Shown piece after piece: positions 3,061 to 37,431 of a stretch of 64,000 nt of DNA. Both the position numbers and the translations under genes were made by a program. Source of the stretch: an uncultured Nitrospiraceae bacterium (GTDB lineage Bacteria > Nitrospirota > 9FT-COMBO-42-15 > HDB-SIOI813). The stretch is from positions 89,168 to 153,167 of the forward strand of contig CAZTAM010000002.1 in assembly GCA_964611625.1 (NCBI GenBank), given 5' to 3'. The notes under the pieces are model-generated. The model was not told where the DNA came from, searched no databases, and saw nothing but the letters and a program-made list of their open reading frames with translations. How positions within the stretch are numbered: position 1 is the first letter of the stretch; the number at the start of each line of letters is the position of its first letter.

Positions 3061-3074
3061 CTGCGCGCCCTCGT

Positions 3075-5855: not shown

Positions 5856-6874
5856 AGTATCCTTTCGATGTCATTACACCAGGCACTGAAGAGACGTTTT
5901 GTATTTTCCGGAATAAAGTCAAGACCCTCAAGGCATCCATACAGTTGCCTGAGATTTTCAAAGACATTTCCTTTATCCAGATTCACTTCCATAAGCTCCC
6001 GGCAGAACCTGTCGGTATTCTCCATTCCATATACTTCATCCCTGAGATTGACCCAGTGATTCTGCTTGTTTCTCTCCTGCCATACAAAAGGGCGACCAAA
6101 ATGAACATGGTAGTCTGTTTCCATCATTACCCTTTCAGCTATATATGAACCCCATATATCATCGAACCTTCCAACATCTGTAAGAACCATCATTAACGGG
6201 GCAAGCTCACGAACATAAGCCGTATTTTGAGAATTTACCGGTGTAAAAACGCCATTGGCAACTATAATACCGGAATTCAACAAGTCAGACAGGTGCATAA
6301 CACCGGGATTTGTAACGATCCTATCCATAGCATCTATATCAGGGTCGCCGAGCCACAGTCCTGCGGCAATGCCTATCTTTCTGCTGCTGACCGGTTTCAG
6401 GGATATTTCAGTGTCCTTTTTGCGTTGACTGTAAGGAAATCCCCTGTGATATACCCTGGGCAGAAGGAAATCCCCAATATTAAACCATTTGGATTCCGGA
6501 GAAGCCATTAATCCTGAATATGCAGTTCCAAAGATGGCCCTTACGGCGCTGAAATAATCGTCTCCAATTGGAATATTATCGTCATCAATCGTTACAATGA
6601 CATCAGGTTTGAGTCTGATTGCCTCAAGGAGCACAATATTCCTGCGCATTATCTTGTTCCACCCGATGACCTCAGAACATTCATAGCCAAGTTTGTCCTG
6701 GTCCGTGTCGCTGTAATAAATAGCATTCCCAAGTTCAGCAGCCATCCTTGCGACCTTCTCGTGAGGAGTTTTCCTGTCTCCGGCAATGAGGATAGTAACA
6801 TCCGGCCCCATACTGCGGTAACGCTCAAGAACTTCGGGAACAAAAATGGTAGTTGTAATAAGCGCTATCTTCAT
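5852..6874 (-). CDS. Putative glycosyltransferase (DxD-containing, RGP/STELLO-like fold)
   Basis: 340 aa, MKIALITTTIF...VTIDDDNIPIGDDYF. Acidic DDD motif and a nucleotide-binding-like N-terminus. Overlaps both neighbours by 4 nt. The family assignment is tentative. Confidence 0.4.
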   Translation of the reverse strand: MKIALITTTIFVPEVLERYRSMGPDVTILIAGDRKTPHEKVARMAAELGNAIYYSDTDQDKLGYECSEVIGWNKIMRRNIVLLEAIRLKPDVIVTIDDDNIPIGDDYFSAVRAIFGTAYSGLMASPESKWFNIGDFLLPRVYHRGFPYSQRKKDTEISLKPVSSRKIGIAAGLWLGDPDIDAMDRIVTNPGVMHLSDLLNSGIIVANGVFTPVNSQNTAYVRELAPLMMVLTDVGRFDDIWGSYIAERVMMETDYHVHFGRPFVWQERNKQNHWVNLRDEVYGMENTDRFCRELMEVNLDKGNVFENLRQLYGCLEGLDFIPENTKRLFSAWCNDIERIL

Positions 6875-8193
6875 AAAAAGGCTTTTCCAAGAGGGACATA
6901 CCTTATCTTACTGCCGAGGGTTTTAGCATCCAGCATCCTCCAGCAGTCAATTACTGTAGTAGGATTATTAACAATATTTATTTCGCTAATGTTCCTGAAT
7001 TCAGGCGCCCGGGTAGCGATAACGACAGTTGAGGCTTTTTCAAAACATTCCTTAACTGATGATGCATAAATTACTTTGTTGCCCAACTTTGACCGTGATT
7101 CATCCATTGCACCAGGGTCGTAAACGGTAACCAGTATTTTGTTTTCGATAAGTTTTTCTATAAGCCTTATTGATGGCGACTCTTCAATAACAGGGGTATT
7201 CGGCTTATATGCAAGTCCTAGTATTGCCACAGTCCGCTCTTTCATATTATCAAGGTGCTTCATTACGAATTTCACAAGATGCCCTATCTGTGACCTGTTC
7301 ACCTCATCTGTTGCCTTAGCCAGTTTAGCGTCAATGCCGTAATCCTTTGCAAATGCCGCAAATGCCCTGTTGTCTCTCGGAAAACATGGACCGCCAAAGC
7401 CGAGTCCTCCCTTCAGATAATACGGAGATATTCTTCTGTCTGAACCGAGGGCTTGTGTTATGTCGTCAATATCAGCCCCTGAAACTTTTTCACATATGTT
7501 TGCAAGGGTGTTTGCAAAGCTAATCTTCATGGTTATATAAGAGTTGAGGCTTATCTTTGTAATCTCGGCGCTTATAACAGACATCCTGGCAATGCAGGGG
7601 GAGTTCTCGCAGCCTTTTTCGTAGACCCTCTCAAGCATTTCTCCTGCAACAGCGCTGCTTTCACCGATCAAAACCATATCAGGATTGAGGAAGTTTGTTA
7701 TGACACTGCCGAGGGCGATAAATTCAGGGTTGTAGCAGACACCAAAGCCATTATTAAGCTCTCGTCCTGAATATCTTTCTATCAGGGGAATTAATATTTT
7801 CTCTGTTGAACCGGGGGAAACTGTAGAGGTAATGACAAACAAATGGTATGGCTTACTGCTTTTTTTCAGGGCCTGGGCAAGTGGTGCCAGGGCAGACATC
7901 ATATAATCATTTGCGAATTGGCCATCGTCCCTGCTTGGAGTAGGGACTATCAAAAAAGTAATATCAGAGCTGTTAATCGCCTCTTCATAGTCATCAGTAG
8001 CCCTTAATTTATTACCAGCAGACGAAATTAACTCTTGCAGCCTTGGCTCATCAACCGGTGCTCTACCCTGATTGATGGCATCTATAAAATCTTTATTGAT
8101 ATCTACACCTATGACATCAAAACCTCTGTATGCGAAACACGAAGCAGTGCACGCACCAAGTTTTCCCAGTCCTATAACTGAAAGCCTGTTCAT
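6871..8193 (-). CDS. Nucleotide-sugar dehydrogenase (UDP-glucose/GDP-mannose dehydrogenase family)
   Basis: MNRLSVIGLGKLGACTASCFAYRGFDVIGVDIN is a Rossmann NAD-binding N-terminus typical of UDP-sugar 6-dehydrogenases, followed by the ...GGPCFPRD motif. The start is moved to the internal ATG at 8193, which has a GAGGGAA RBS; the ORF-track start at 8232 lacks one. Confidence 0.85.
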   Translation of the reverse strand: MNRLSVIGLGKLGACTASCFAYRGFDVIGVDINKDFIDAINQGRAPVDEPRLQELISSAGNKLRATDDYEEAINSSDITFLIVPTPSRDDGQFANDYMMSALAPLAQALKKSSKPYHLFVITSTVSPGSTEKILIPLIERYSGRELNNGFGVCYNPEFIALGSVITNFLNPDMVLIGESSAVAGEMLERVYEKGCENSPCIARMSVISAEITKISLNSYITMKISFANTLANICEKVSGADIDDITQALGSDRRISPYYLKGGLGFGGPCFPRDNRAFAAFAKDYGIDAKLAKATDEVNRSQIGHLVKFVMKHLDNMKERTVAILGLAYKPNTPVIEESPSIRLIEKLIENKILVTVYDPGAMDESRSKLGNKVIYASSVKECFEKASTVVIATRAPEFRNISEINIVNNPTTVIDCWRMLDAKTLGSKIRYVPLGKAFL

Positions 8194-8217
8194 CTTTAAT
8201 TCCCTCGTTGTAACCCT

Positions 8218-8247
8218 GATGCATGGATGCATGGGGGATGCATGGGG
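8218..8247. repeat. Three tandem copies of a (G)ATGCATGG(GG) unit in the leader of the dehydrogenase gene
   Basis: Read directly: gatgcatgg / atgcatggggg / atgcatgggg. Each unit contains the palindromic hexamer ATGCAT. Confidence 0.8.
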
Positions 8248-8251
8248 TCAC

Positions 8252-8298
8252 GTCTTGCAATAAAGCATCCTTTTTATAAGGATGCTTTATTGCAAGAC
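8252..8298. repeat. Perfect 21-bp inverted repeat (hairpin with 5-nt loop) in the intergenic region between the radical-SAM and dehydrogenase genes
   Basis: gtcttgcaataaagcatcctt-tttat-aaggatgctttattgcaagac. The arms are exactly complementary and no U-tract follows on either strand. Confidence 0.85.
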
Positions 8299-8358
8299 CT
8301 GATCCCCGATCATCCATTCGATCTGACGATCATCAACCCCCGATACTACGCTCAGGGA

Positions 8359-9597
8359 TTAAATGAATTTATGAGTCATGCTGTCGTTTAATATGACCTG
8401 TTCATAAATCTGATTATGCGGTTGATAGGTGCATCTGGGACATTCATTTGCAACCTTAATATTATCATGCATTTTCCAATGGGCATCCCCTCCCCATAAC
8501 CTTTGAATATCGTTAACATCCACTATATTGCTTGCAAGTTCCAGCTTCGAGTCACCTCTTCTGTCGCAGCAAAGCCCAAGGACAAAAGAGTCCGGGGGGG
8601 CATCTTTGTCAGAAGGCGGCGCTATAACAGCTGTCATAAATATTGCGTGACACTTGTTAAAATAGTTTGCCCTGTCAAACTGGTTATTAAATTTATGAGT
8701 AACGCCATAAACCCCGAAGGTCTCATCATCCAGTTCAATGGCCATAGAGATCTGTTCATTGAAATGCTCAATTTCTTCTTTAGTAAAATGAATTTCCTGT
8801 TCAGTGCCAAGATTGTCCCATGTCGTACCAGCCGGACGAAAGTGGATGTTCTTGCATCCGATCTCTTTCGCAATTTTTGCCGCCTGAAAGACCTCTTCAA
8901 TGTTGTCTTTGTAAAGGAGGTACTTGTAGCTGACGCCATATGCAGGGTGTTTGAATCCAAGCCTGTTATTGTGCATTCGTGAATACTCTACAAGAGTGGC
9001 CATGTTTTCAATTATTCTGTCAAATGTGTCGTTATGTGCTGACAACCCCTTTTGCTTATTAAATGTGCCTGATGCTGCCGCATCAACTGATGCCCCTACC
9101 CAAGTACAGTGTGAAAGAGAATCAATGTACTTGTCTATCATTATTCCGTTTGTAACCACTCCCACTTCAATTCCATTATCAATAACTTTATCAATAAAAC
9201 CGGCAATGCCTTTATTTATGAGCGGCTCTCCACCACCAGCAATACAAATGGCCTCCACTCCCGGCTTCCAGTAGCGACTGCCTTCCCCCCAGCGGGGAAG
9301 AAAATCTGCAATACTGGAAAGTGCCTTGTCAGATAACATTCCTTTACGTTCCTTTCGAACAAATTCGGCATTGCACCATACGCAATCCAGGTTACAGACA
9401 TTTGTAGGATCTATAGTAATGAGGATTGGAGGCGGTATAGGCCTCCCTCTTTTTATCTTGTTCCACCTCTCAACATGAGTCAGTAATTTATAACTATTGA
9501 ATGGATTCCATTGCTTGCTAGGATTCCATTCTTTCTTTTTTCCAATCACAGAGACAGATCCTTCTCCGTTTCTTCTTTGAGTAAGCAGATTAGCCAT
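8359..9597 (-). CDS. Radical SAM enzyme (third one; different architecture, Cys-rich C-terminus, possibly SPASM/twitch-like)
   Basis: ITIDPTNVCNLDCVWCNAEF (CxxxCxxC at about residue 73). C-terminal LGLCCDRRGD...CPRCTY cysteines. The start is moved to the ATG at 9597 (MANLLTQ), which has an AGGAG RBS 9 nt upstream; the ORF-track start at 9615 contains the RBS. Confidence 0.7.
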   Translation of the reverse strand: MANLLTQRRNGEGSVSVIGKKKEWNPSKQWNPFNSYKLLTHVERWNKIKRGRPIPPPILITIDPTNVCNLDCVWCNAEFVRKERKGMLSDKALSSIADFLPRWGEGSRYWKPGVEAICIAGGGEPLINKGIAGFIDKVIDNGIEVGVVTNGIMIDKYIDSLSHCTWVGASVDAAASGTFNKQKGLSAHNDTFDRIIENMATLVEYSRMHNNRLGFKHPAYGVSYKYLLYKDNIEEVFQAAKIAKEIGCKNIHFRPAGTTWDNLGTEQEIHFTKEEIEHFNEQISMAIELDDETFGVYGVTHKFNNQFDRANYFNKCHAIFMTAVIAPPSDKDAPPDSFVLGLCCDRRGDSKLELASNIVDVNDIQRLWGGDAHWKMHDNIKVANECPRCTYQPHNQIYEQVILNDSMTHKFI

Positions 9598-10166
9598 ATT
9601 AAATTCTCCTATCATTTATTCATGAGATTCATTCTATAAAGACAGATGAAACAATATATTTCAGAATCTTATTCTTCCCGGCTTGTTTTAAATAACATAT
9701 TGATATATTTGATATTTCTTATTGACAAGATAGGGATATGCAAATCTCCTGCCATGAAAAGTGGCTTCTTTTCAGCTAAAATCGGTAGGGATGTCAGAGC
9801 ATAATCGTAGGTATAACTGCATGATAATTAAGATAAATATTAAATTTATATCAAACCTGGTTTTTTAATTCAGGACAGGGCAGATATGACGCATGTCAAT
9901 GTATTGACAATATTGTTTGACGCAATTCGATGAATACTACGTCCTGAATGTATCCCTCCATAACAGGAAACCTGCGGCCGGGCAACTCCCTGCTCATCAC
10001 CCTTTTACCGTTAAGAAAATAGTAAAATCCTTATCCCTGACAGCCACCATCAATAAACCTTTCTTCCACATCGTTTATATTATTTTTTAGTGGTTTGTTG
10101 CAAAATATCAGGATCAGATCGTTGTTACCATGACATAACGAGCAAAAAAAAGATTGGCAGGGAAAT

Positions 10167-23535: not shown

Positions 23536-24303
23536 ATGGATATTCTAATCCCTATAGGTATTGTATTTAGTATAGCAGCCATTCTTATCGGGCAGGCTTT
23601 GGAAGGCGGGCATGTCGGATCTATCATGCAGTTTACAGCCTTTCTAATAGTAATCGGAGGCACTATGGGGGCAGTAATGGTCAACTATCCCCTTAAACCT
23701 TTTTTGATGGCATTTAAGCTTGCTATCCAGGCAGTCTTTCCAGGAAAGACCGATTATGAAGCATTCATATCTCAACTTGAGAACTATGCACAGGTTGCAA
23801 GAAAAGAAGGCATTCTTGCACTGGAATCAAGGGTTAAAGACGTCACTGACCCATTTCTCAGCCGCGGACTCCAATATGTTATTGATGGAACTGAACCGGA
23901 TACTCTTAAGAAGATCCTGGAGATAGAGATGTCATATCAGGAAGAACGTGAAATGCTTTCCGCCAAGGTATTCGAAACAGCTGGCGGGTTTGCTCCAACC
24001 GTAGGTATCCTGGGAGCTGTACTTGGATTAATCCATGTAATGGAAAATCTTGCCGATCCGAGCAAACTGGGATCAGGTATTGCAACAGCATTCGTCGCCA
24101 CAGTTTATGGAGTCGGTTCGGCCAATTTGCTCTTCTTACCATTGGCTGGAAATATAAAGATAAAGATAAAAGGGAAGACTCTGATTAAAGAACTAACAAT
24201 AGAAGGTCTAATTGGTATAGCAACAGGAGAAAACCCAAGGCTGCTCAGGGAAAAACTAGAGGGTTTTATTGAAAAAACAAATAATAAACAAGCTAAGAAA
24301 TAG
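23536..24303 (+). CDS. motA: Flagellar stator protein MotA
   Basis: Four TM segments. ..GIATAFVATVYGVGSANLLFLPLAGNIKIK is a conserved MotA/PomA/TolQ motif. Confidence 0.9.
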   Translation: MDILIPIGIVFSIAAILIGQALEGGHVGSIMQFTAFLIVIGGTMGAVMVNYPLKPFLMAFKLAIQAVFPGKTDYEAFISQLENYAQVARKEGILALESRVKDVTDPFLSRGLQYVIDGTEPDTLKKILEIEMSYQEEREMLSAKVFETAGGFAPTVGILGAVLGLIHVMENLADPSKLGSGIATAFVATVYGVGSANLLFLPLAGNIKIKIKGKTLIKELTIEGLIGIATGENPRLLREKLEGFIEKTNNKQAKK

Positions 24304-24319
24304 TTGAGAATGGGGCCGT

Positions 24320-25054
24320 ATGCCGAAGAAAAAACATGAAGACCACGAAAACCACGAAAGGTGGCTCGTATCATATGCTGATTTTATCACACTACTATTT
24401 GCCTTTTTTGTAGTTATGTACTCAACATCATCAATAAATGAGGGTAAATACAGGGCAGTAAGCGAATCAGCTCAGGCTGCCTTCAACCCGTCGTCGCAAA
24501 CTGCAAAAAAAATTGAGGTAGGGCCAAAGCTGTCCTCCGGAAGCAAGCCGCAGGGAAAAGTTGAATATATTGCAGCGATAAAGGGTGTAATGAAGGATTT
24601 TGAAAAGAGTAAAAAACTGGTTATCTTTCAGAACAGCAGGGGAATCGTTATCAGAGTCACAGATACCGCTCTTTTTGATTCAGGAAAGGCTGAAATCAAG
24701 AGTGACGCAGTTGAAGCGATTGACAACCTGGCGGGTGTTCTTACAAAAATCAGAAAAGATATTCAAATCGAAGGTCATACTGACGACATTCCCATTAACA
24801 GTCCTCTCTATCCGTCTAACTGGGAGTTATCATCGTCACGGGCAACCAGTATAGTACGCAGGTTTGTTAATATGGGTATGGAACCATCAAGACTAACTGC
24901 TATAGGTTATAGTGAGTTCCGTCCGATAGCAGCAAATGACACACCGGAAGGACGCAGCAAAAACCGGAGAGTTGACATTGTAGTATTAAACGATAAGCTT
25001 TCGTCAGATGACAAGCACTTCGCTAATCCATTTGCTGATCTGAAAATAGAATAA
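24320..25054 (+). CDS. motB: Flagellar stator protein MotB
   Basis: WLVSYADFITLLFAFFVVMYS is the plug/TM region with the conserved Asp. The C-terminal OmpA-like domain reads IEGHTDDIPIN..NWELSSSRATSIVRRF. Confidence 0.9.
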   Translation: MPKKKHEDHENHERWLVSYADFITLLFAFFVVMYSTSSINEGKYRAVSESAQAAFNPSSQTAKKIEVGPKLSSGSKPQGKVEYIAAIKGVMKDFEKSKKLVIFQNSRGIVIRVTDTALFDSGKAEIKSDAVEAIDNLAGVLTKIRKDIQIEGHTDDIPINSPLYPSNWELSSSRATSIVRRFVNMGMEPSRLTAIGYSEFRPIAANDTPEGRSKNRRVDIVVLNDKLSSDDKHFANPFADLKIE

Positions 25055-25130: not shown

Positions 25131-25436
25131 TTAAGCTATAATATCAATGTGTTTTAGTACATTCTCAATCTCTTCCTGATTATCTTCTTCCTTAGATTCC
25201 TTTTCATCACTATGTGATTCATCCCGCTGCTCTTTGCAGTCATCATTTACGCTTATTTCAACCCTGTCAGCCTGTTCCTTATCTTCGATCTTTTTTCCTT
25301 TGACTTCTGCACTCTTTTGTCCCTCAGATGTATACCTGGCCTGTTCTGCCTGCGCCTGCTGCTGCTGAACATGCTGAACTTTATCAACACCTGATATGTT
25401 AGAAACTATCTGCTGTATATTGCTTATACTTGACAT
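25131..25436 (-). CDS. Small acidic hypothetical protein (last gene of the minus-strand che block)
   Basis: 101 aa, Q- and E/K-rich (..HVQQQQAQAEQARY..DDCKEQRDESHSDEKESKEEDNQEEIEN). No recognisable domain. 15-nt gap to cheW. Confidence 0.4.
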   Translation of the reverse strand: MSSISNIQQIVSNISGVDKVQHVQQQQAQAEQARYTSEGQKSAEVKGKKIEDKEQADRVEISVNDDCKEQRDESHSDEKESKEEDNQEEIENVLKHIDIIA

Positions 25437-25451
25437 TGTACTTTATAGAAA

Positions 25452-25934
25452 TCACCTCTGATTTAAAAACAGGAGGTCTTCTAAATTTAACACAGTTATT
25501 AACCTGTCATCTTTTTTGCCAATGCCCATTATATACTTTGATCTCGAATTATCATCAATGGCAGGACAGGACTCAAGTTCATTTTGGTTCAGATTAATGA
25601 CATCTATCACAGCATCAACAACTAACCCTGCCAGTCTGCTGCCTGTATCAACTACGATTATTCTTGACGAATCGGTATGTGCTGAAACACTCTTTCCCAT
25701 TCTATTTCTTAGATCTATAACCGGAACAATCTTACCCCGTAAATTTATTACACCACCGACATACGCCGGCGCCTTCGGGACCTTTACTGCTCCTATGACC
25801 CGTATAATTTCCTGAACTTTCATAATATTAATTCCACACTGCTCATTGCCAACCATAAAGGTTACCAGCTGCACTACATCGTCTTCAATTGTAGTAGATT
25901 TCATGTTATTATCACCTGCCTCTTTTAAAATCAC
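25452..25934 (-). CDS. cheW: Chemotaxis coupling protein CheW
   Basis: LVTFMVGNEQCGINIMKVQEIIRVIGAVKVPKAPAYVGGVINLRGKIVPVIDLRNRMG is the CheW domain. Confidence 0.88.
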   Translation of the reverse strand: MILKEAGDNNMKSTTIEDDVVQLVTFMVGNEQCGINIMKVQEIIRVIGAVKVPKAPAYVGGVINLRGKIVPVIDLRNRMGKSVSAHTDSSRIIVVDTGSRLAGLVVDAVIDVINLNQNELESCPAIDDNSRSKYIMGIGKKDDRLITVLNLEDLLFLNQR

Positions 25935-26994: not shown

Positions 26995-28833
26995 CTAAAC
27001 TGAAGTTAAATCACGTTGTCTGTAAATCAGAGAACCTGGATCCAGGATAAGGCCAACTTTCCCGTCTCCGGTAATAGTTGCACCAGAGACCTCTTTAATA
27101 TCAGAAAAATATGTCCCTACAGGCTTAATTACAACCTCCTCCTGATGGCATAATTCGTCCACAATAATACCAACCTTCTTTTCGGCTATTGCCATAAGGA
27201 CTACATATACCCAATCTTTATCTGCATCTGCGTAATTGAGCTCAAGTGCATCACTGAGCTTGATAAGTGGTATCAGGCTATTTCTAACATTAAGTATCTG
27301 CTGACCATCTATGTATTTCAGGCTGCTCTTTGAAACTTTGAACGTCTCTAATATGGAAGACAGTGGAAGTGCATACATCTCTCCATTAACCTTAACCATA
27401 AGAACCTGGATTATAGCCAATGTTAACGGTATTTTCAGCGCTACCTGGGTTCCATTGCCATATTCTGAATTGACATCTATAATTCCATTTATACGACCAA
27501 TATTGGTTTTGACAACATCCATACCAACGCCTCTGCCCGAGATATCAGTTACCTTTTCAGCTGTGCTGAAACCAGGCTCAAAAATATAATTTATAATTTC
27601 CTTATGTGAGGGTTTAATATCATTATTTCTAATTAATCCCCGTTCGCGAGCTTTTCTCTCCACTGTCACAGGATCAATACCTTTTCCATCATCCTCAATC
27701 TTTATAACTATAGAATTTCCTTCCTGGAAGGCATTAAGCCTGATAGTACCAGCTTCAGATTTTCCCTGTTTAAGCCTCTCCGAAGGTGTCTCTATCCCAT
27801 GATCGATGGAATTTCTGATTATATGAACTAGTGGGTCACTAAGCTCTTCAATAACCGATTTGTCTATCTCAGTTGACTCGCCATGCATCTCAAGATTGAT
27901 CTTCTTATTAGCCTTTCTGGCAATATCACGCACCATTCGTGGGAATTTATTAAATACCTTTCTTATTGGCACCATCCTCATCTTCATCACCGAGAGCTGA
28001 ATATCAGTTGTAATGAGACTAAGATTAGACGACGTCTCGAGCAAAGCCTTGACTTTCTCGTCCCCTTCGTATAATCCCTCCATTTCTGATAGTATCTTGC
28101 TAAGCCTGTTTCTGCTAAGGACTAATTCTCCAACAAGGTCCATTACATGGTCGAGACGATTTGTATCAATTCTGAGGGTCTGCTCCTTATCGTCACCAGC
28201 GTTTAACATCTGTTTATCCGGATTCTTCTCCCGGGATATATTTGTATCTTCATTGAGTGTTTTTACGGCAGTTTCACAAGATGAAACTTCACCCCCATCA
28301 CCACTACCCTTCTCAAACTTTTCATTCTGAACCTGTTTCAGAATCTCCATGCCTTGCCTCACACCAGACCCTGAAACAAGTTCAGTTTGACATGCCGAAG
28401 TTTCATCAGAAACTGCTGACTCATTTAATGACTTTTCAACGTGTACAGAATATTCTAACAATAATGAAAGCTTCCTCTTGATCGTATTGATATCTATTTG
28501 CTCACCAGTATTATCCTTAATTTCACACATCAAAGTCTTAAGCACATCAACTGATTCCAGTATTATATCAATAGTCTCTGATGTCGCCTGCATCTCCTGC
28601 TGACGAAGTTTGTTTAAGACATTCTCAGACTGATGGGCCACCTCTACCAGACGTGTAAAACCAAGAAATCCTGCAGAACCTTTAATACTGTGAACAGCCC
28701 GGAATATTTCATTAATGAGGCCTAAATCACCCGGGACCTCCTCAAGTTTTACAAAGCATTTATCAAGGCCTTCCAGCACCTCATCTGTCTCAACAACAAA
28801 ATCCCTTATCAACTCCTGCATCTCATCCGCCAT
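26995..28833 (-). CDS. cheA: Chemotaxis histidine kinase CheA
   Basis: The P1 HPt motif is ..RAVHSIKGSAGFLGF. The H-box/ATPase is HLVHIIRNSIDHGIE...GRGVGMDVV. A C-terminal CheW-like domain follows. Confidence 0.92.
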   Translation of the reverse strand: MADEMQELIRDFVVETDEVLEGLDKCFVKLEEVPGDLGLINEIFRAVHSIKGSAGFLGFTRLVEVAHQSENVLNKLRQQEMQATSETIDIILESVDVLKTLMCEIKDNTGEQIDINTIKRKLSLLLEYSVHVEKSLNESAVSDETSACQTELVSGSGVRQGMEILKQVQNEKFEKGSGDGGEVSSCETAVKTLNEDTNISREKNPDKQMLNAGDDKEQTLRIDTNRLDHVMDLVGELVLSRNRLSKILSEMEGLYEGDEKVKALLETSSNLSLITTDIQLSVMKMRMVPIRKVFNKFPRMVRDIARKANKKINLEMHGESTEIDKSVIEELSDPLVHIIRNSIDHGIETPSERLKQGKSEAGTIRLNAFQEGNSIVIKIEDDGKGIDPVTVERKARERGLIRNNDIKPSHKEIINYIFEPGFSTAEKVTDISGRGVGMDVVKTNIGRINGIIDVNSEYGNGTQVALKIPLTLAIIQVLMVKVNGEMYALPLSSILETFKVSKSSLKYIDGQQILNVRNSLIPLIKLSDALELNYADADKDWVYVVLMAIAEKKVGIIVDELCHQEEVVIKPVGTYFSDIKEVSGATITGDGKVGLILDPGSLIYRQRDLTSV

Positions 28834-28936: not shown

Positions 28937-30064
28937 CTAATCAAAACCGAATTCTTTAAGGATATTATCCACAACATCCTGTTTTAGTGTTGGATTATCA
29001 GAATACTCCTTTAATGAGTTAATATCTTCATTGGAATTCTTAGACTTAAGTCCAAATGTAACGATCAGCTGCAAAAGACGTTTCTCGACATCCTCTATGA
29101 GCCCTACTATAGTCTTGATCTTTTGACCAGTTATATCCTGGAAGGAAAGTCCGGTAATTATGTCCAGAAGTATCTCTCTGTCTTCAGATATCAGATTCTT
29201 TACCTCTTCGAGTGATTTTGACGCATTATTACCACGTTCAGCGGATTCAGCATGATGCATTATCACATCATGATTATCAAGCACCTTCTCTACCTGACTC
29301 ATTATATTGTGAGTTGCCGTCTCCGTTGCTTTGGATATTTCAGATAACTGCATAGACGCCTGTGGTATTTTGTCTGATGCATGAGCAAGATTAGGTTCAG
29401 CAAATTGCATTTTTTTGATAGTAGCATTAATATATCTGGCAATATCTCCTAATTGTCCGTATAATTCTTCTTTTATTTCATGTTTGAAATCGCCCTGAGA
29501 CATTGCCCTGGCTGCATCCACAAGTTCTCCAATATCTTTATAAGTATCATCGTGTGGACTGTAACTGCAACTGTCCTCACACGTTTCCTGAACAGTGTCC
29601 GTAATATAATTGTTTTGGCTGTAGTCCTTGAATAACCTGGCCAGGTCCAGTACAACCGTAATATGGCCATTATTTCTTATGATCCCCCGTATATACTCTG
29701 AGCTCATACTTTTGGTAATTGCAGGCGCTTTCTCAAGGCTATCATCAGGAACTCTGATCACTTCTGAAACAGAATCCACCAGAATGCCTATTTTGTCTTC
29801 GTTAAAACCTACTATAATTATCCTGGTGTCCCGGGTAATTTCTCCCCCGTTTATACCCAGTTTACCACCAAGATCAATGACTGGGATTACAGCGCCGCGC
29901 AGGTCTATAACGCCGAGAACATTGCCAGGCAATTCAGGCATCCGGTTAATATGCTCATACCTGTTGATTTCATGTATGTCCGAGATATCAACTGCAAACC
30001 TTTCACCGCCAACGGAAAACCCGACTAATTGCGATACATGATCAAACTGTTTTTGTACCTGCAT
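28937..30064 (-). CDS. CheW-like domain fused to a CheZ-type CheY-P phosphatase
   Basis: The N-terminal 150 aa are a CheW domain (FAVDISDIHEINRYEHINRMPELPGNVLGVIDLRGAVIPVIDLGGKLG). The C-terminal 200 aa carry SFQDITGQKIKTIVGLIEDVEKRLLQLIV and the terminal KQDVVDNILKEFGFD. From memory these match E. coli CheZ catalytic Gln motif ([24 protein letters not shown]) and its C-terminal CheA-binding peptide (QDQVDDLLDSLGF). Confidence 0.7.
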   Translation of the reverse strand: MQVQKQFDHVSQLVGFSVGGERFAVDISDIHEINRYEHINRMPELPGNVLGVIDLRGAVIPVIDLGGKLGINGGEITRDTRIIIVGFNEDKIGILVDSVSEVIRVPDDSLEKAPAITKSMSSEYIRGIIRNNGHITVVLDLARLFKDYSQNNYITDTVQETCEDSCSYSPHDDTYKDIGELVDAARAMSQGDFKHEIKEELYGQLGDIARYINATIKKMQFAEPNLAHASDKIPQASMQLSEISKATETATHNIMSQVEKVLDNHDVIMHHAESAERGNNASKSLEEVKNLISEDREILLDIITGLSFQDITGQKIKTIVGLIEDVEKRLLQLIVTFGLKSKNSNEDINSLKEYSDNPTLKQDVVDNILKEFGFD

Positions 30065-30110
30065 AATATGGCTCCTTGATCAATTTCACTGAATCATGAT
30101 TTGCGACGAA

Positions 30111-30494
30111 CTATTTATTGTCAAATATCTTTTCAATCTTTTCCTTGAGTACATCAGCTGTAAATGGTTTAACCACATAATTGTCTACTCCTGCTTTTAT
30201 AGCATCCAGGACATTCTCTTTTTTTGCCTCTGCTGTTACCATTAGTACAGGCATTTTGCTCAGCGCATTGTCAGCCCGTATAGCCTTCAGCAGGTCCAAT
30301 CCTGTCATATTTGGCATATTCCAGTCAGACACCACAAGACCATATCCACCCTGTCTTAATCTTGCAAGCGCACTGTTGCCATCTTCAGCCTCATCAATAT
30401 CCGAATAGCCAATCTGTTTAAGGATGTTTTTCACAATTCTTCGCATTGTAGAAAAATCGTCTACCACTAAAACCTTCATCTTAAGATCTAACAT
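30111..30494 (-). CDS. cheY: Chemotaxis response regulator CheY
   Basis: [96 protein letters not shown] is near-collinear with E. coli CheY as recalled from memory. Confidence 0.92.
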
Positions 30495-30910: not shown

Positions 30911-31765
30911 CTATTTCTGATAAATCAGCACACTGTTAACACTTACAATTTTAAAAGCCCTCGTGACATTAAACAGCGATTCTGAATGTCCTATGAACAG
31001 ATAGCCGCCCGGAACCAGACTGTTGTACAGACTTGAAATGACTTTTTTTTTGGATGCTTCATCAAAGTATATCAGTACATTCCTGCAGAATATTATGTCC
31101 ATTCCCCGGTACATCCTGATCGCTGAATCGTCTGAAAGATTAATATTGCTGAATCTAACCAGCTTCTTGATTTCCGGTTTTATGATATATTTATTGCCGC
31201 CATCTTTCGTAAAATATTTATTAAGATGTTGGGGAATGACATTACGTACCGAATAATCATTATATTCTCCCCTTCTTGCTGAGCTTAATACTGCCTCGCT
31301 GATATCACTCCCATGTATCTCTATATCCCAATCCTTATACTCAGGAGCAGACAGTTTATCTGTAACCATCATTGATAATGTATAAGGCTCCTCTCCGGTA
31401 GAACATGCGGCGCTCCATATACGTATCTTCCTGCTTCCCTTAGCCTTGATCTTCTGAACTACATCCGGCAGGACTAAAGAATCAAATGCCTGCAGCTGAT
31501 TAGTATCCCTGAAAAAAAAAGTCTCATTGGTTGTTATGATATTAAATAGATTTATGAACTCTTTTTCCTTTCCCGCATCATACTTGAGAAATTCAATATA
31601 TTTTTCGTAATTCTCAAAACCGGCATCCTCAATGCGTCTTGAGAGCCTGTTTTCCAGTATATATTTCTTATTTTCTGGGAAATGCATGCCGCTTCTGTCA
31701 TAAATCATATCTCTCAGAGAGTGATATGCATTATCACTCATTTTAATAGTTTTAGTAGTTAACAT
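30911..31765 (-). CDS. cheR: Chemotaxis methyltransferase CheR
   Basis: ..LRDMIYDRSGMHFPENKKYILENRLSRR.. is the CheR N-terminal domain. ..ETFFFRD..IRIWSAACSTGEEPYTLSM is the SAM-MTase signature. Confidence 0.9.
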   Translation of the reverse strand: MLTTKTIKMSDNAYHSLRDMIYDRSGMHFPENKKYILENRLSRRIEDAGFENYEKYIEFLKYDAGKEKEFINLFNIITTNETFFFRDTNQLQAFDSLVLPDVVQKIKAKGSRKIRIWSAACSTGEEPYTLSMMVTDKLSAPEYKDWDIEIHGSDISEAVLSSARRGEYNDYSVRNVIPQHLNKYFTKDGGNKYIIKPEIKKLVRFSNINLSDDSAIRMYRGMDIIFCRNVLIYFDEASKKKVISSLYNSLVPGGYLFIGHSESLFNVTRAFKIVSVNSVLIYQK

Positions 31766-33737
31766 ATTTTGATGACATCAGCTTATTGTATGCATCTACA
31801 GCAGCATCCCGGATTATCTGATCTTCTTCCGATGCGGCGTTTCGAAGTATATCCTCAGACTCATATACCCTAAGCTCTCCCAATGCCCATATAGCGCTTT
31901 TCCGGACTGTATAATTATCACTGGCGGCAAGCCTGATAATAAAGGAATTAGCTGTTTGTGTCTTCTGTCTTACGAGCCCTTCAATCGCCTTTAATTGAAC
32001 CCATTCGTTATTATCATCAAGCAGCTCAATAAGTTCATCCGTGGCCCTGTAATCCGTGCATTCACTTAACAATTGAGCCACTATCATTCGAACTTCTTCC
32101 TTTTCATCATGAGCAGCTATTATCAGATTTTCAATAAAATTATTCTTTTTGGTACAGCTGAGAGTTTCCAGGCATGCCCTTCTTACTCTCCAGTTTTCAT
32201 CATTCAATAAACCGATTATAAGCTCTTCAGAATCAATCCATTCTAATTCCCCCAATCCACGCACTATTATTTCTCTTACAGAGGGATTTTTGCTGTTCAG
32301 ACTGGCTAAAAGACCCTCAGCCAGCTCCTGCCTCTTATATCTCCGCCCTATTTCGATTAACACATCAACTATCTTACCAATTACATTGTGATACTCCTCG
32401 ACCCAAAGCTGTTTTAAAAGAGGCTGTATCACAACTATTGATTCAATTGATCCCAGAGCCTCAACTGCCGCCTCCCTGATATGTCCTTCACCGTCTGACA
32501 GATGCTCCGAAATAAAACTGAGTGCCTTTTTACCGCCAATATTACCCATGGCGTAAAGAATCTCCTTTTTAAGATCTCTCTCAACGTCTTCAAATAAAGA
32601 TGCAAGCGATGAAAGAGATTTTACAGATCTTCTGAGACCAAGCACCTTTACAGAAACCCACCTTCTCGTATGATTTTCATGACTGAGTGAGTCAATAAGC
32701 GTATTCTCATCACAAACAATATCCACCAACTCAACCGTTTTATTTACCATATCCTGGTTTTCAATGTCTATAATCTCAGTAAGTTTCATAACCTCTCTGG
32801 AACACTTGCTTCCATCAACTGTTATAAAGGCCTGCAGGATGTGCATTATATTTTCAGGCTGCGTTCCATCAATGGTATCAGCAACCCTGGCGAGATGAGT
32901 AATAAATTCATCCCTGCCAAGCTCATCAATTAGGGAGCAAATGTTTCCCTGAGTCATGGTTACTATACCCATTACAGCTGTATCCATTATTTCCTGATTA
33001 ACAATATCTATTATCTCAAGCATTCCGGCTACAGACTCTTTACCTCCTATATGGGATAAAGCATCAATAGCCATTGACTGAACATCAATATTGTCTGAAG
33101 ACTTGATTAGATTAACAAGTGGTCTGATAGCCTTACTGTTACCTTGTCTTCCAAGTGATTCAACAGCAAACAGTGTAACCCAATCGTCCCGCCCAAGAAG
33201 ATCAATGAGGTAGTCTACTATCGACTGGTCAGTAATCCTGCCAAGTCCTTCAATTGCAGAACTTCTCACATTGTCATTATTATCTTTTAGCATCTCAATC
33301 AGGATTGGCGTCGCAGCAGGAAGTTCCAGCCGGCCAAGGATATCCGCTATCATCTTACGAACATCCTCGTCTCTGTCATTTATATGAGCATGAAGTAGTC
33401 CGAGCCCGCTGCCTCCTGTCTTCTCAAGTATCTCCTGTGCCAGATTTTTTACAGCTACGCGTTTGTCAGCCAACAGGGGGAGAAGATTATACACTGCAGC
33501 TTCATCATCATAAACAAGCAGTGCTTCCATAGCTGCCTGTTGAACACCAAGGTCATCATCCTGCAGTGACTTAATAAGAGGATAAAGCAGCCTGCCATCC
33601 CTGATGCCGGTTATCATCCTGATAGCATCGCAGCGGATGACACTATCATTATCACCGATCAGCTTCAATGACATATGTATATCCTGTTCAGAACCGGCCA
33701 TCATGGCAACCCTTTTATCGGAAACATCACAGAGCAC
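31752..33737 (-). CDS. HEAT-repeat (PBS-lyase-like) protein embedded in the che operon
   Basis: 661 aa with many ..D.DVR..A..ALG.IG.. repeats, e.g. DEDVRKMIADILGRL, DNVRSSAIEGLGRI, NWRVRRACLETLS, EEVRMIVAQLLS. It overlaps cheR by 14 nt. Confidence 0.7.
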   Translation of the reverse strand: MLCDVSDKRVAMMAGSEQDIHMSLKLIGDNDSVIRCDAIRMITGIRDGRLLYPLIKSLQDDDLGVQQAAMEALLVYDDEAAVYNLLPLLADKRVAVKNLAQEILEKTGGSGLGLLHAHINDRDEDVRKMIADILGRLELPAATPILIEMLKDNNDNVRSSAIEGLGRITDQSIVDYLIDLLGRDDWVTLFAVESLGRQGNSKAIRPLVNLIKSSDNIDVQSMAIDALSHIGGKESVAGMLEIIDIVNQEIMDTAVMGIVTMTQGNICSLIDELGRDEFITHLARVADTIDGTQPENIMHILQAFITVDGSKCSREVMKLTEIIDIENQDMVNKTVELVDIVCDENTLIDSLSHENHTRRWVSVKVLGLRRSVKSLSSLASLFEDVERDLKKEILYAMGNIGGKKALSFISEHLSDGEGHIREAAVEALGSIESIVVIQPLLKQLWVEEYHNVIGKIVDVLIEIGRRYKRQELAEGLLASLNSKNPSVREIIVRGLGELEWIDSEELIIGLLNDENWRVRRACLETLSCTKKNNFIENLIIAAHDEKEEVRMIVAQLLSECTDYRATDELIELLDDNNEWVQLKAIEGLVRQKTQTANSFIIRLAASDNYTVRKSAIWALGELRVYESEDILRNAASEEDQIIRDAAVDAYNKLMSSKYVNY

Positions 33738-33771: not shown

Positions 33772-35082
33772 TTATACCCTTTTACATTTTATTGATATCT
33801 TTGCAACTACGGGATCAATTTTATGAAAATTCCTTATTTTTTCCAGGTGAACCGGCCTGATAACTTCACCGCTGGCCATTAATAGAAGGCCTCTCTTAGT
33901 CCTGACATCTGAGACAAGAAGCATCCCCTCTTTCAGTTCAGAAACATCAATCTCGAAGATGTCTGTCTCTATCTCCTCATGTCTGAATTCATGAAGAACC
34001 TCATTAAATTTACCAACCAGCACCGGGTCAAACCTTTTGCCGGCGTTATTTTCAAGTACGTAAAGCGCCCTATCCACTGAATAACGTTCCCCCCCATCAG
34101 CTGGATTAATCAACTCATCAAATAAGCCGGCTATAGCAATAATCCTTGAGCCCGCCGGAATACTGTCCCCCCTGAGTTTATCCGGGTAGCCTGAGCCGTC
34201 ATATCTCTCGTGATGATGCCTTATTAGAATAGAAGCTGGCAGAAGCTTCTTAATATGCTGCAGAGAAGTCTGCGCTAGTAAAGGATGCTGCTGAATAAGC
34301 ACCATCTCAGTAGGGTCAAGTTCTGACTCCCTTTTTCTCAGCATCTTCTCAGGAAAACCGAGTGTTCCTATATCTTCAAGCAATGATGCAGCCTCTATGT
34401 CAAGTATTTCATCTTGCGGTAAACCTGCCTTCTCTGCCAGCCTGCGTGAAAGCGCAGCGACACGTTTACAGTGGCTTACGAGATATGGGCTCTTCAGTTC
34501 CAAGAGGCTCATAAATACCATGACAAAGTCAATGAAGTTCTGCTCAAGTTCCCTGTAAAGTGATTCTACCTCTTTAGTCCTTTCTGCAACTTTCTCACCC
34601 AGATTGAAGTTAAGGTCATTTAACTCAAGGTTCTGTCTCTGTGTTAAGGCATGCAGTTCCCTGTTTTCTTCAATAAGCTCATAATGAAGTATGGCATCCT
34701 TTACAATGCATCTTATTTCATCATCATCCCAGGGCTTTGTAATAAACCTGTAAACCTCTCCGTGATTTATGGCATTCATCACTGCCTGCATGTCGGCATA
34801 ACCTGTAAGCATCATCCTTAAGGTATCAGGATATTTCTTTCTGACCTCACTGAGAAACTCTGCACCTTCCATACCTGGCATTCTGTGGTCTGAAAGAACG
34901 ACAGATATCTTTTCATTTTCTATGACTGATAGTCCCTCAACGCCGCTATTAGCCGTAATTATCCTGTACTGCTCCTTCCGGAATGTTCTCTTAAGGGCAT
35001 TAAGAATATTCTCTTCATCATCAACAAAGAGCAAAGAATGGATTCGCTCCGTACCAGTTTCAGTACTCATTATGACTTTCAA
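33772..35082 (-). CDS. Response regulator with HD-GYP c-di-GMP phosphodiesterase domain (RpfG-like)
   Basis: The N-terminal REC reads LLFVDDEENILNAL..D.. The C-terminal HD-GYP domain has ..HHHERYDGSGYPDKLRGDSIP. Confidence 0.85.
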   Translation of the reverse strand: MKVIMSTETGTERIHSLLFVDDEENILNALKRTFRKEQYRIITANSGVEGLSVIENEKISVVLSDHRMPGMEGAEFLSEVRKKYPDTLRMMLTGYADMQAVMNAINHGEVYRFITKPWDDDEIRCIVKDAILHYELIEENRELHALTQRQNLELNDLNFNLGEKVAERTKEVESLYRELEQNFIDFVMVFMSLLELKSPYLVSHCKRVAALSRRLAEKAGLPQDEILDIEAASLLEDIGTLGFPEKMLRKRESELDPTEMVLIQQHPLLAQTSLQHIKKLLPASILIRHHHERYDGSGYPDKLRGDSIPAGSRIIAIAGLFDELINPADGGERYSVDRALYVLENNAGKRFDPVLVGKFNEVLHEFRHEEIETDIFEIDVSELKEGMLLVSDVRTKRGLLLMASGEVIRPVHLEKIRNFHKIDPVVAKISIKCKRV

Positions 35083-36100
35083 TTACCTCCAGAAATGTGT
35101 TCAATATATATGGATCAAATTGAGTACCCCTTCCCTTCTCCAGAATCCTGTAAACCTCATCCATTGGCATAACAGATCTGTATGGCCTGCTGCATGTCAG
35201 GGAATCATAGACATCTATAATAAACACTATTCTTGACGATACAGGAATTGCATCACCCTTGAGGCCATCAGGATAGCCGGAACCATCGAAATGTTCATGA
35301 TGGTGCCTGACTATTCTTGCTACATCATCAAGCCCATGCATAAATGATATAATTGACGCACCTATTATGGGGTGTTTCTCAACCTGCGTCCTCTCTTCCT
35401 CTGTAAGGGGACCATTCTTCTTGAAAATACTGCAATCAATACCTATATTACCTATGTCATGCAGTCTTGTTGCAACATATAAATTCTTGAGATCTGAATC
35501 ATTAAAATTAAGTTTCTGCCCAATAATATGGCTTATAGCATACAAATCATCCACATTAGTCGGCACACATGAGTACTTTTCCCGTGATACATAACTCAGC
35601 ATCTCTACAGTTCGGATGATATATTCCTGAATCTCCTCTATTTTCTCGGTCAGCTGCATGTTCGCATTTTTCAACTCATCATTCTGCCTTCTTACATCAT
35701 CCAGCAGTTTCTTGTTGTCACTCTGCAGCTCATATCTTTCCAGGGCATATCGTACTTCCGACTTTAAAATGTCATCTTCCCATGGTTTGGTAAGAAACTT
35801 ATAAATACCACCGTCATTTATTGCTGATATTATTGTGGAACAGTCTGCATAACCGCTAAGAATCATCCTTATCGCATCAGGCCTCAGACTCATTGCCTCA
35901 TGCAAAAAAGTTACACCATCCATATCCGGCATACGATAATCCGATATAATCAGATGGACATTATGTTCCTGAAGAAGTTTTAGCGCATCGCCGGGATTGT
36001 CACACTTCAGGATATGATATTTATCCTTCCTGAAGACCCTGTAAATCGCGTTCAACACGCTTACCTCATCATCAACCAGCAGTATAGTATAATCACCCAT
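35060..36100 (-). CDS. Second response regulator with HD-GYP domain
   Basis: REC (ILLVDDEVSVLNAI..) plus HD-GYP (..HHHEHFDGSGYPDGLKGDAIP). A tandem paralog of the previous gene. Confidence 0.85.
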   Translation of the reverse strand: MGDYTILLVDDEVSVLNAIYRVFRKDKYHILKCDNPGDALKLLQEHNVHLIISDYRMPDMDGVTFLHEAMSLRPDAIRMILSGYADCSTIISAINDGGIYKFLTKPWEDDILKSEVRYALERYELQSDNKKLLDDVRRQNDELKNANMQLTEKIEEIQEYIIRTVEMLSYVSREKYSCVPTNVDDLYAISHIIGQKLNFNDSDLKNLYVATRLHDIGNIGIDCSIFKKNGPLTEEERTQVEKHPIIGASIISFMHGLDDVARIVRHHHEHFDGSGYPDGLKGDAIPVSSRIVFIIDVYDSLTCSRPYRSVMPMDEVYRILEKGRGTQFDPYILNTFLEVIESHNEY

Positions 36101-36105
36101 AAGCT

Positions 36106-37431
36106 TTAACCTCTCAGGATCTGCCGCAACTGCATGTTCTCAGCTGGTAAACAAATTTTGAAAGTTGTACCAGAGCCGACTTTACTGTTAACTGTAATCT
36201 CACCATTATGTTTACGGATAATTGCGTATGCAACGGATAACCCCAGCCCTGTTCCCTTTCCAACAGGTTTCGTTGTAAAAAATGGCTCAAAAATCCTCGG
36301 CAGATGATCCTGGGAAATTCCACTGCCGGTATCACTTATACTGATAACAATATTATCGTTTTCACTGCAGGTGCTGATACTTATTATTCCCTTGCCATCT
36401 ATTGCATGCGCGGCATTTACAAGGATATTCATGAAGACCTGATTTAATTGCTGCGGATAGCACAAGACCTGAGGAATATCCCCATACAGTGTCTTAACCT
36501 CTGCCTTATATTTAATCTCATTCCAGACTATGTTCAGCGTACTCTCCAACCCCTTGTTAATATCTGAGAATTCAGGTTTATCCGATCCAGTGTGTGAGAA
36601 TTCCTTTAAATCCTTGACTATCTTGCTTATACGCCTCATACCATCCTGAGTCTCTGCGAATATCTGTTCAATATCATCCAGCAAAAAAACCACATCTATC
36701 TTCTGTTTAAAGGACTCAATATCCTTTAAATGAGCAGATACACCTTCATCAGAGATCCCGCTGCAACTCTGAACAAGGGTCTCATATTCTTTCATAAGAC
36801 CTCTTATATCAGTAATATATTCATTAAGCGTCTTTAAGTTGCTTAATACAAATCCAGTGGGATTGTTTATCTCATGGGCTATTCCTGCAGAGAGCTGTCC
36901 GATTGATGCCATTTTATCGCTCTGAACCAACTGCGCCTTAGTCTGCTGTAATTTCATGAGTGCCTCATCACTTGCCTCTTTTGCAACTCTAAGCTCATCA
37001 GTCCTTCTGGCTACACGTTCTTCTAATTCTTCGTTTAACTCAGTAAGCTCAGTGATTAGCTGATATATCTCCCTCATATCTCTTGCAATAAGAACTATGG
37101 CCTCAATCCTGTTATCTTCACTTTTTACGAATGAACCATTCATGATTACAGGTATCCGTCCGCCATTATTGCTAAGGAGATTAAATACCTTATTATGCAT
37201 TTGTTCATTAGTCTCAAACCTGGTAATCAGCTCAGATATATTCAGGTCATGATTATCAAAGAGTTTCCAGGCAGGGATACCGTCAATTTCGTCAAAGCTG
37301 TACTCGAGAGCATTCAGGGCTGCACGGTTGACAAACCTGACTGTCCCGTCGGGATTAGCCACAATAAGAATATCCGCCATATTACCAAGGATATTCTCAT
37401 AGAACTGAGGCTTATAGCCAATATTCGTCAC
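36106..37431 (-). CDS. PAS-domain sensor histidine kinase (cytoplasmic)
   Basis: N-terminal PAS-like region. The HisKA domain reads ..SAGIAHEINNPTGFVLSNL. The HATPase domain reads ..ISISDTGSGISQDHLPRIFEPFFTTKPVGKGTGLGLSVAY. It overlaps the fliA stop by 4 nt. Confidence 0.8.
   Translation of the reverse strand: MTNIGYKPQFYENILGNMADILIVANPDGTVRFVNRAALNALEYSFDEIDGIPAWKLFDNHDLNISELITRFETNEQMHNKVFNLLSNNGGRIPVIMNGSFVKSEDNRIEAIVLIARDMREIYQLITELTELNEELEERVARRTDELRVAKEASDEALMKLQQTKAQLVQSDKMASIGQLSAGIAHEINNPTGFVLSNLKTLNEYITDIRGLMKEYETLVQSCSGISDEGVSAHLKDIESFKQKIDVVFLLDDIEQIFAETQDGMRRISKIVKDLKEFSHTGSDKPEFSDINKGLESTLNIVWNEIKYKAEVKTLYGDIPQVLCYPQQLNQVFMNILVNAAHAIDGKGIISISTCSENDNIVISISDTGSGISQDHLPRIFEPFFTTKPVGKGTGLGLSVAYAIIRKHNGEITVNSKVGSGTTFKICLPAENMQLRQILRG

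Follow-up and report, generated by a model that had tools for sequence, protein, structure and literature searches.

Gene and domain layout of the CheW-CheZ fusion

A single gene encoding a CheW-like domain joined to a CheZ-type phosphatase was analysed in a stretch of 64,000 nucleotides (the window) from an uncultured Nitrospiraceae bacterium (GenBank assembly GCA_964611625.1, contig CAZTAM010000002.1). A preliminary description of this DNA, made from the sequence alone, had placed the open reading frame (ORF) at 28937-30064 and read it as CheW followed by CheZ. The ORF was recovered at exactly these positions, on the minus strand and with 375 amino acids, and both domains were found in that order; the layout was incomplete in that a HAMP-like segment at amino acids 177-220, between the linker and the helical bundle, had been overlooked. 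Inspection of the sequence found the frame open without a break across the CheW/CheZ junction. No methionine codon that could start a free CheZ occurs between amino acids 120 and 188, in a check that covered ATG starts. The features of the gene and of its closest neighbours are listed in Table 1.

A monomer model of the fusion was built with AlphaFold2 from an alignment of 47 sequences. The mean predicted local distance difference test score (pLDDT) was 64 and the predicted template modelling score 0.36, a medium confidence that is expected because a monomer was modelled for an obligate dimer. In the model the beta-barrels of CheW (residues 10-139) are followed by a disordered stretch (150-176), two helices (174-189 and 199-220), a hairpin of two long helices (226-276 and 281-337), a second disordered stretch (337-361) and a terminal helix (362-371). 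The pLDDT values are approximately 65-84 for the CheW strands and 60-86 for the hairpin helices.

Conservation was calculated from 39 close family members of the fusion. Mean identity is highest in the C-terminal peptide (85%), followed by the CheW domain (73%), the bundle helices (about 67%) and the helix-connector-helix segment (66%). Mean identity is 48% in the second linker, 40% at the tip of the hairpin and 16% in the first linker, which varies in length from 20 to 46 amino acids. Such a profile is the pattern that would be expected of folded modules joined by tethers.

Table 1. Features of the fusion gene and of adjacent chemotaxis genes, in window coordinates (aa, amino acids)
Feature	Position	Strand	Basis
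cheW-cheZ fusion gene, complete (375 aa + stop)	28937..30064	-	ORF list; unbroken frame; Pfam CheW and CheZ above cut-off
Shine-Dalgarno-like AAGGAG	30072..30077	-	7 nt 5' of the ATG at 30064; read from the sequence
CheW-like domain, aa 12-147	29624..30031	-	Pfam PF01584; AlphaFold2 strands; Foldseek; residue conservation
Inter-domain linker, aa 150-176	29537..29617	-	pLDDT <50 (predicted disorder); 16% mean identity
HAMP-like helix-connector-helix, aa 177-220 (AMSQGDF...YGQLGDIARYIN)	29405..29536	-	Pfam; phmmer; AlphaFold2; conservation
CheZ helical hairpin (predicted; half of a presumed dimeric four-helix bundle), aa 226-337	29054..29389	-	Pfam CheZ; E. coli CheZ alignment; AlphaFold2
Catalytic motif SFQDITGQKIK (D310, Q314)	29114..29146	-	BLASTP alignment; invariance
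Second flexible linker, aa 338-360	28985..29053	-	pLDDT <50 for 337-361; 48% identity
Putative CheY-binding C-terminal peptide, aa 361-375 (LKQDVVDNILKEFGFD)	28940..28984	-	Alignment with E. coli CheZ 200-214; AlphaFold2 helix; conservation
cheY, presumed substrate, immediately upstream of the fusion	30111..30494	-	E. coli CheY identity; NCBIfam equivalog
cheA (P1, P3, P4, P5), directly downstream; its product is the presumed partner to which the CheW domain docks	26995..28833	-	Pfam; PDB matches at 4-119 and 215-603 only
Separate canonical cheW of the same operon	25452..25934	-	Pfam CheW, 128 bits; 37.6% identical to the CheW domain of the fusion

The CheW-like domain

Residues 1-150 had been described as CheW-like, and formal alignment with Pfam CheW (PF01584) gave a match over amino acids 12-147 (profile positions 1-136 of 138) that scored 128.7 bits, where 23.5 is the cut-off, at an E-value of 1.6e-37. 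A phmmer search of the PDB matched the N-terminal half of the fusion to six CheW structures. Foldseek comparison of the modelled domain gave template modelling scores of 0.80-0.88 and a root-mean-square deviation of about 2 A to CheW chains of solved core signalling units (2qdl, 6s1k_C, 8c5v_E and 2ch4_W). As modelled, the domain is predicted to have the canonical double beta-barrel fold of CheW.

In E. coli CheW, the E38-R62 pair together with G57, G63, G99, V36, I39, V88, V105 and V108 is implicated by published mutational work in binding to the CheA P5 domain and to receptors. The equivalents of E38, R62, G57, G63, G99, I39, V88, V105 and V108 in the fusion are E32, R56, G51, G57, G93, I33, I82, V99 and V102, respectively, and these nine residues are invariant in all 39 fusions compared. 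The equivalent of V36 is I30, a position occupied by isoleucine or valine throughout the same set.

The CheZ half, its catalytic motif and the C-terminal peptide

Homology of the C-terminal half to CheZ, which had been proposed earlier, is supported by formal alignment: Pfam CheZ (PF04344) scored 74 bits, above its cut-off of 30.7 (E-value 2e-20), and the NCBIfam CheZ profile PRK11166 aligned amino acids 192-374 with its positions 10-217 of 217. The score for the enteric CheZ equivalog NF008368 was 52.4 bits, below its cut-off of 257. Against the PDB, phmmer matched amino acids 200-374 to residues 16-214 of E. coli CheZ (1KMI_Z) with an E-value of 1.3e-6. BLASTP against E. coli CheZ gave an E-value of 5e-8 at about 21% identity; the E. 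coli sequence used here agrees in extent with that of 1KMI. The domain matches of the fusion are not due to chance.

Both motifs that the preliminary description had quoted were reproduced by the BLASTP alignment. The SFQDITGQKIK motif was recovered, with D310 and Q314 placed on the catalytic residues D143 and Q147 of E. coli CheZ, and this Asp-x-x-x-Gln pair is invariant in 47 of 47 aligned relatives, fused and unfused alike. At the C-terminus QDVVDNILKEFGF was paired with QDQVDDLLDSLGF, amino acids 361-374 of the fusion aligning with E. coli CheZ 200-214, and six residues of this peptide (Q362, V365, L369, F372, G373 and F374) are invariant across the fusions. The peptide had been interpreted earlier as CheA-binding, a label that does not hold: in the CheY-CheZ complex 1KMI of Zhao et al. 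(2002), the C-terminal peptide of E. coli CheZ is reportedly the helix that binds CheY and phosphorylated CheY (CheY-P). By analogy with this homologue, the peptide of the fusion is probably CheY-binding and not CheA-binding. The second linker of the fusion (338-360) corresponds to the linker at residues 169-199 of E. coli CheZ (PMC7750401).

The short form of CheA in E. coli (CheA-short) binds instead at the tip of the CheZ hairpin, within residues 70-133, through the motif D(D/E)WF (PMC7750401). The hairpin of the fusion is about 18 residues shorter than that of E. coli CheZ, and its tip (…HHAESAERGNNASKSLEE…) has neither D(D/E)WF nor an aromatic cluster, with 0-1 aromatic residues. As the tip is shortened and both the motif and the aromatic cluster are missing, the enteric localisation determinant is absent from the fusion, which would therefore need another route of localisation.

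Extended forms of CheZ were also found in a group of cultured sulfate reducers. These proteins of 428-556 amino acids, with N-terminal extensions of 230-430 amino acids in which no Pfam domain was found, include P0269 (Thermodesulforhabdus norvegica), P0308 and P0324 (Desulfacinum infernum), P0284 (Desulfatibacillum sp.), P0297 and P0312 (L and P numbers are our labels for loci and proteins). The extension may be another localisation or regulatory module.

A HAMP-like module between CheW and CheZ

The segment at amino acids 177-220 (…AARAMSQGDFKHEIKEELYGQLGDIARYINATIKK…) scored 17.3 bits with Pfam HAMP (PF00672; E-value 0.006), for which the cut-off is 25. In stand-alone relatives the homologous segment exceeds this value, with 31.4 bits in L013, 31.0 in L011, 26.0 in L003 and 25.8 in P0121, the last of which carries a precomputed annotation of HAMP and CheZ. 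A phmmer search of 1.84 billion representative proteins matched amino acids 178-224 to eight or nine repeats in each of the giant proteins P0233, P0245 and P0285 (E-values 4e-18 to 9e-13), and Pfam identified P0233 and P0245 as poly-HAMP arrays. In the 39 family members the segment has a constant length of 44 amino acids. A HAMP-like identity for this segment is thus supported by sequence comparison. On its N-terminal side lies the disordered linker, whose length varies, and the protein contains no transmembrane segment; a typical in-line helical input to the module is consequently missing.

BLASTP alignment of E. coli CheZ with the fusion starts only at the second HAMP-like helix. The N-terminal helix of E. 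coli CheZ has no known function (PMC7750401), and because the alignment begins at this point, that helix is the counterpart of the second HAMP helix.

Stand-alone HAMP-CheZ proteins of about 220-240 amino acids occur at L003:9941-10615, L011:1040-1720, L013:9944-10669, L009:9962-10642, L014 and L023, and as P0121. Their hosts are Nitrospirota, Nitrospinota, Myxococcota, Thermodesulfobacteriota and NC10 metagenome-assembled genomes (MAGs), and in these cytoplasmic proteins the HAMP segment is N-terminal and above the Pfam cut-off. No paper describing the combination of HAMP and CheZ was found in the literature searched.

Position of the fusion in the flagellar and chemotaxis operon

The window forms one large flagellar superoperon. 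Flagellin and glycosylation genes, fliD, flgKLN, flgAHI, flgFG and motAB are followed by cheW, cheB, cheA, the fusion, cheY, a second receiver gene, cheR and a gene for a HEAT-repeat protein, and then by two response-regulator/HD genes, a PAS kinase gene, fliA, flhG, flhF, flhA, flhB, fliR, fliP, fliO, fliM, fliL and flgE. The order flhA-flhF-flhG-fliA...cheY-cheZ-cheA-cheB...cheW recurs in related genomes, and on gene order alone we take it to resemble the F6 flagellar che clusters of Vibrio and Pseudomonas. The fusion occupies the cheZ slot of this order, which in L013, L015, L017 and L009 (other Nitrospirota, Nitrospinota and 'Deltaproteobacteria' MAGs) is held by a stand-alone cheZ of 200-280 amino acids. 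No second cheZ was seen in the fusion-bearing loci. The adjacent CheY, which had been called strikingly similar to that of E. coli, is indeed 66% identical to it (82/125) and passes the cut-off of the E. coli-type equivalog (194.2 against 189 bits).

In the CheA encoded in the window and in 10 further CheAs from fusion-bearing and fusion-free loci, no P2 (CheY-docking) domain was detectable. A connection of the fusion with the loss of P2 from CheA was ruled out, as P2 is undetectable both with and without the fusion, and its absence does not explain the fusion because none is detected in fused and unfused clusters alike. A CheA from Leptospirillia (L007:11225-13654, 810 amino acids) contains two Hpt domains.

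Distribution and evolution of the fusion

A survey of genomes for this architecture had been recommended. Searching 5.8 billion proteins identified approximately 56 clusters (at 90% identity) of the same length and with precomputed CheW and CheZ architecture, down to 43% identity, and a second search started from a divergent fusion added approximately 33 clusters. Custom hidden Markov models assigned both CheW and CheZ to 107 retrieved proteins, which extend down to about 30% identity and are drawn from independent NCBI, JGI, ENA and Logan assemblies. A word-indexed search with the CheZ half had given 13 matches, and the exhaustive search of representatives was used instead. When 185,579 species-representative genomes were scanned with a limiting pattern, seven fusion loci, all of them in Nitrospirota, and about 70 stand-alone relatives were recovered. 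In all, roughly 100 homologous protein clusters have the architecture. Annotation pipelines name the fusions either 'protein phosphatase CheZ' or 'purine-binding chemotaxis protein CheW'.

All named sources of the fusion are Nitrospirota MAGs (labelled Nitrospirae, Nitrospiraceae, Nitrospirales or Leptospirillia) with the exception of P0288. This protein (L080:8001-9371, GCA_015222755.1) comes from a MAG labelled 'Proteobacteria bacterium', a label that is unverified. Its CheZ match breaks off at position 157 of the 203 in the profile, an ORF of 45 amino acids comes next, before cheA, and the C-terminus may be frameshifted or truncated.

At least two clades of fusions were distinguished. Clade A (the window, L001 and L002) has a linker of 26-35 amino acids followed by the HAMP-like module, and clade B (L005, L007, L010, L012, L031 and P0133-P0165) has a linker of 32-101 amino acids with no HAMP match. 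Neighbour-joining trees of the CheZ domain were calculated with 200 bootstraps from complete genomic ORFs only, on about 190 columns. Clade A was monophyletic in 100% of bootstraps and grouped with the stand-alone CheZ of L003, L004 and L006 in 76%; clade B grouped with the stand-alone CheZ of L037 in 100%, and an exclusive group of clades A and B was recovered in 0%. The L037 gene is genuinely unfused, with cheY, a 207-bp spacer and a cheZ of 203 amino acids, and the unfused relatives carry no cheW gene in the interval from cheY to cheZ. A first large neighbour-joining tree that included metagenomic 'solo' CheZ sequences was set aside, as some of these are fragments of fusions (e.g. P0317); in that unsupported tree the further fusions P0253, P0290, P0288, P0208 and P0167 were placed elsewhere.

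The most economical reading of these trees would be at least two independent CheW-CheZ fusions, because each fusion clade is sister to unfused CheZ and the junctions differ. The alternative reading is one ancient fusion followed by several fissions. Repeated fusion, if the trees are read in this way, suggests that tethering was selected more than once.

Comparison with known systems

The fusion shares with E. coli CheZ (PF04344; 1KMI) the DxxxQ motif, the helical hairpin (predicted in the fusion), the linker and the C-terminal CheY-binding peptide, and the presumed outcome in both is a phosphatase at the receptor-kinase array. It differs in the addition of the N-terminal CheW domain and the HAMP-like module, and its tether would be covalent, whereas that of E. 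coli is a short isoform of the kinase. The stand-alone HAMP-CheZ proteins (e.g. L003, L011, L013 and P0121) are the nearest relatives of the C-terminal 200 amino acids, with up to 50-52% identity; they have the HAMP-like N-terminus and the operon slot in common with the fusion, but have no CheW domain and no linker.

Three further systems carry comparable combinations. CheV is likewise a two-domain protein with a CheW-like array-docking module that occurs alongside plain CheW (PMC12691637). Its partner domain is a C-terminal phosphorylatable receiver rather than a phosphatase, and CheV is widespread, unlike the fusion, which is rare and known almost exclusively from Nitrospirota. ParP of Vibrio inserts its CheW-like domain, which is C-terminal, into core units of receptors and CheA and brings another function to them (PMC5706961). 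Unlike the fusion, the other end of ParP binds the polar anchor ParC and not CheY-P, and neither ParP nor ParC was identified here. In the CheA-CheC/CheX proteins (F1 CheA, Leptospirae) a CheY-P phosphatase is also joined to an array component, and a dual kinase/phosphatase has been proposed (PMC10542144); that phosphatase belongs to an unrelated family and is joined to the kinase itself, not to a CheW-type adaptor.

Proposed function and alternative explanations

Our analysis suggests, with a probability of roughly 60%, that the fusion is a CheY-P phosphatase covalently tethered to the chemoreceptor array through its CheW domain. The domain identities, the conserved residues, the conserved architecture and the operon position are direct observations on the fusion. 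A molecule with two CheW domains would form by pairing of the CheZ hairpins and, probably, of the HAMP-like helices. Each CheW domain would dock at a CheW-type site, contacting CheA-P5 and the receptor tips, and the flexible linkers would let the phosphatase bundle hang just under the array, beside the kinase that produces CheY-P; the C-terminal peptide would capture CheY-P, and D310 and Q314 would catalyse its dephosphorylation as in E. coli CheZ. The covalent link to CheW would in this way replace the non-covalent enteric tether between the CheZ hairpin tip and CheA-short and achieve the same co-localisation of kinase and phosphatase. Having CheA and CheZ at one site makes CheY-P spatially uniform in E. 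coli and sharpens the response (PMC2673030). ParP, which enters arrays by its CheW-like domain (PMC5706961), and the CheA-CheC/CheX proteins (PMC10542144) are structural precedents for the proposed arrangement.

Several points weigh against this proposal. Every fusion-bearing locus whose contig reaches that far also has a separate cheW in its cluster, and the CheW domain of the fusion therefore need not fill normal CheW sites. Closely related organisms (L003, L013 and L037) have an unfused CheZ in this operon, and systems of this class can therefore work without tethering. Foldseek comparison of the whole model with the PDB matched only the CheW half and did not recover CheZ 1KMI, and the model itself is of a monomer at medium confidence. 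The phylogenies are only neighbour-joining trees of about 190 columns, and the tree of the CheW domain neither unites nor clearly splits clades A and B. Dimerisation, array docking, phosphatase activity and the physiological effect are steps that we infer.

Among the alternatives, a mainly structural role is the least improbable, although we consider it unlikely. The fusion would then be a bivalent coupler, in which CheW doubled by CheZ dimerisation cross-links core units or fills CheW-only rings, with phosphatase co-localisation as a secondary matter. Since E. coli CheZ is an obligate dimer (PMC7750401), the fusion should present two CheW domains. Proteins with tandem arrays of two or three CheW domains exist as separate architectures (10.1101/2022.05.07.491035), and the CheA- and receptor-binding residues of the fusion are kept. 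A scaffold would not account for the distribution of conservation, which is highest in the catalytic residues and the CheY-binding peptide, nor for the operon, in which the gene takes the place of cheZ and not of cheW and no extra cheZ accompanies it.

Rather less probable is a phosphatase regulated by the state of the array, in which the CheW domain senses whether the kinase is on or off and the HAMP-like module relays this to CheZ, making its activity reciprocal to that of CheA. The order of an input-like domain, a HAMP-like module and output helices mirrors that of signalling proteins, the HAMP homology is supported, and the segment is invariant in length and 66% conserved. Coupling of this kind would have to pass through the segment between CheW and HAMP, which is disordered, poorly conserved and 20-46 amino acids long, and is therefore ill-suited to mechanical transmission. 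The HAMP-like module also occurs in stand-alone HAMP-CheZ relatives that have no input domain at all, and the clade B fusions have no detectable HAMP. If such a signalling wire did exist, the array would be a bifunctional kinase/phosphatase switch like the classical sensor kinases, and E. coli CheZ would retain a remnant of HAMP as its N-terminal helix.

It is equally doubtful that the CheW domain targets another array, such as a cluster of cytoplasmic receptors or another chemosensory system encoded elsewhere in the genome. Only 37.6% of its residues are identical to those of the operon CheW, it falls outside the clade of the operon stand-alone CheWs in the neighbour-joining tree, and no receptor gene was found in the window between 1 and 50 kb. 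At every locus, however, the gene sits tightly within the flagellar che operon, with cheY on one side and cheA on the other, and the window gave no sign of a second system.

The chance that two ORFs were joined by a sequencing error, raised in the preliminary description, and with it an assembly join or a pseudogene, can be dismissed almost entirely, because approximately 100 clusters from independent assemblies keep the architecture, the frame is unbroken, the ribosome-binding site is good and both halves are constrained. The tethered phosphatase remains the reading that we prefer.

Other features of the window

A protein of 661 amino acids with HEAT/PBS-lyase repeats is encoded at 31752-33737 (minus strand), overlapping the start of cheR, and its gene position is kept in L001, L002, L009, L013, L015 and L017 (Nitrospirota, Nitrospinae and 'Deltaproteobacteria' MAGs). 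Positions 33772-37431 (minus strand), between fliA and the che genes, hold two tandem response-regulator/HD genes (HD_5, HD-GYP-like) and the PAS histidine kinase gene. This insertion, which is found in L001 and not in L002, suggests that cyclic-nucleotide signalling is coupled to the motility operon. Just 3' of cheW lies a Gln/Glu-rich acidic ORF of 101 amino acids (25131-25436, minus strand) with no Pfam match and with 45-59% identity to its counterparts in L001 and L002.

The genes motA and motB (23536-25054, plus strand) stand on the opposite strand beside the che operon, and in L015 and L017 they lie in line between cheB and cheW; this difference in strand points to a local inversion or rearrangement. 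Beside fliD and flagellin, positions 1366-9615 (minus strand) contain a probable flagellin-modification island, which encodes two radical-SAM proteins (one with TPR repeats), an FkbM-type methyltransferase of 926 amino acids, an RGP-like glycosyltransferase and a UDP-glucose/GDP-mannose dehydrogenase.

Novelty and significance

The preliminary description had stated that no CheW-CheZ fusion has been characterised. No study of such a protein was found in the literature searched, and to this extent the statement holds; the architecture itself has been mentioned once, in a single sentence, as a rare excluded case in the survey of CheW domains by Vass, Bourret and Foster (bioRxiv 10.1101/2022.05.07.491035). 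The HAMP-like module, the distribution over two clades and the replacement in the operon slot appear to be new here. As an undescribed feature of the CheZ lineage, the HAMP-like module may explain the origin of the N-terminal helix of CheZ.

The practical impact is modest, as the hosts are uncultured Nitrospirota and the proposed function varies a known principle. For chemotaxis specialists the fusion is a tidy natural experiment on phosphatase localisation and no surprise. It offers a simple and genetically separable tether with which models of localisation can be tested, and a design idea for synthetic chemotaxis circuits.

The position of the CheY-P phosphatase shapes the gain and the spatial uniformity of the chemotaxis signal. 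Bacteria place it through different non-covalent partners, which are CheA-short in the enterics and ChePep in Helicobacter, while that of alpha-proteobacteria is unknown (PMC7750401, PMC2673030). A natural and possibly repeatedly evolved fusion of CheW with CheZ would be direct evolutionary evidence for selection on the placement of the phosphatase at the array.

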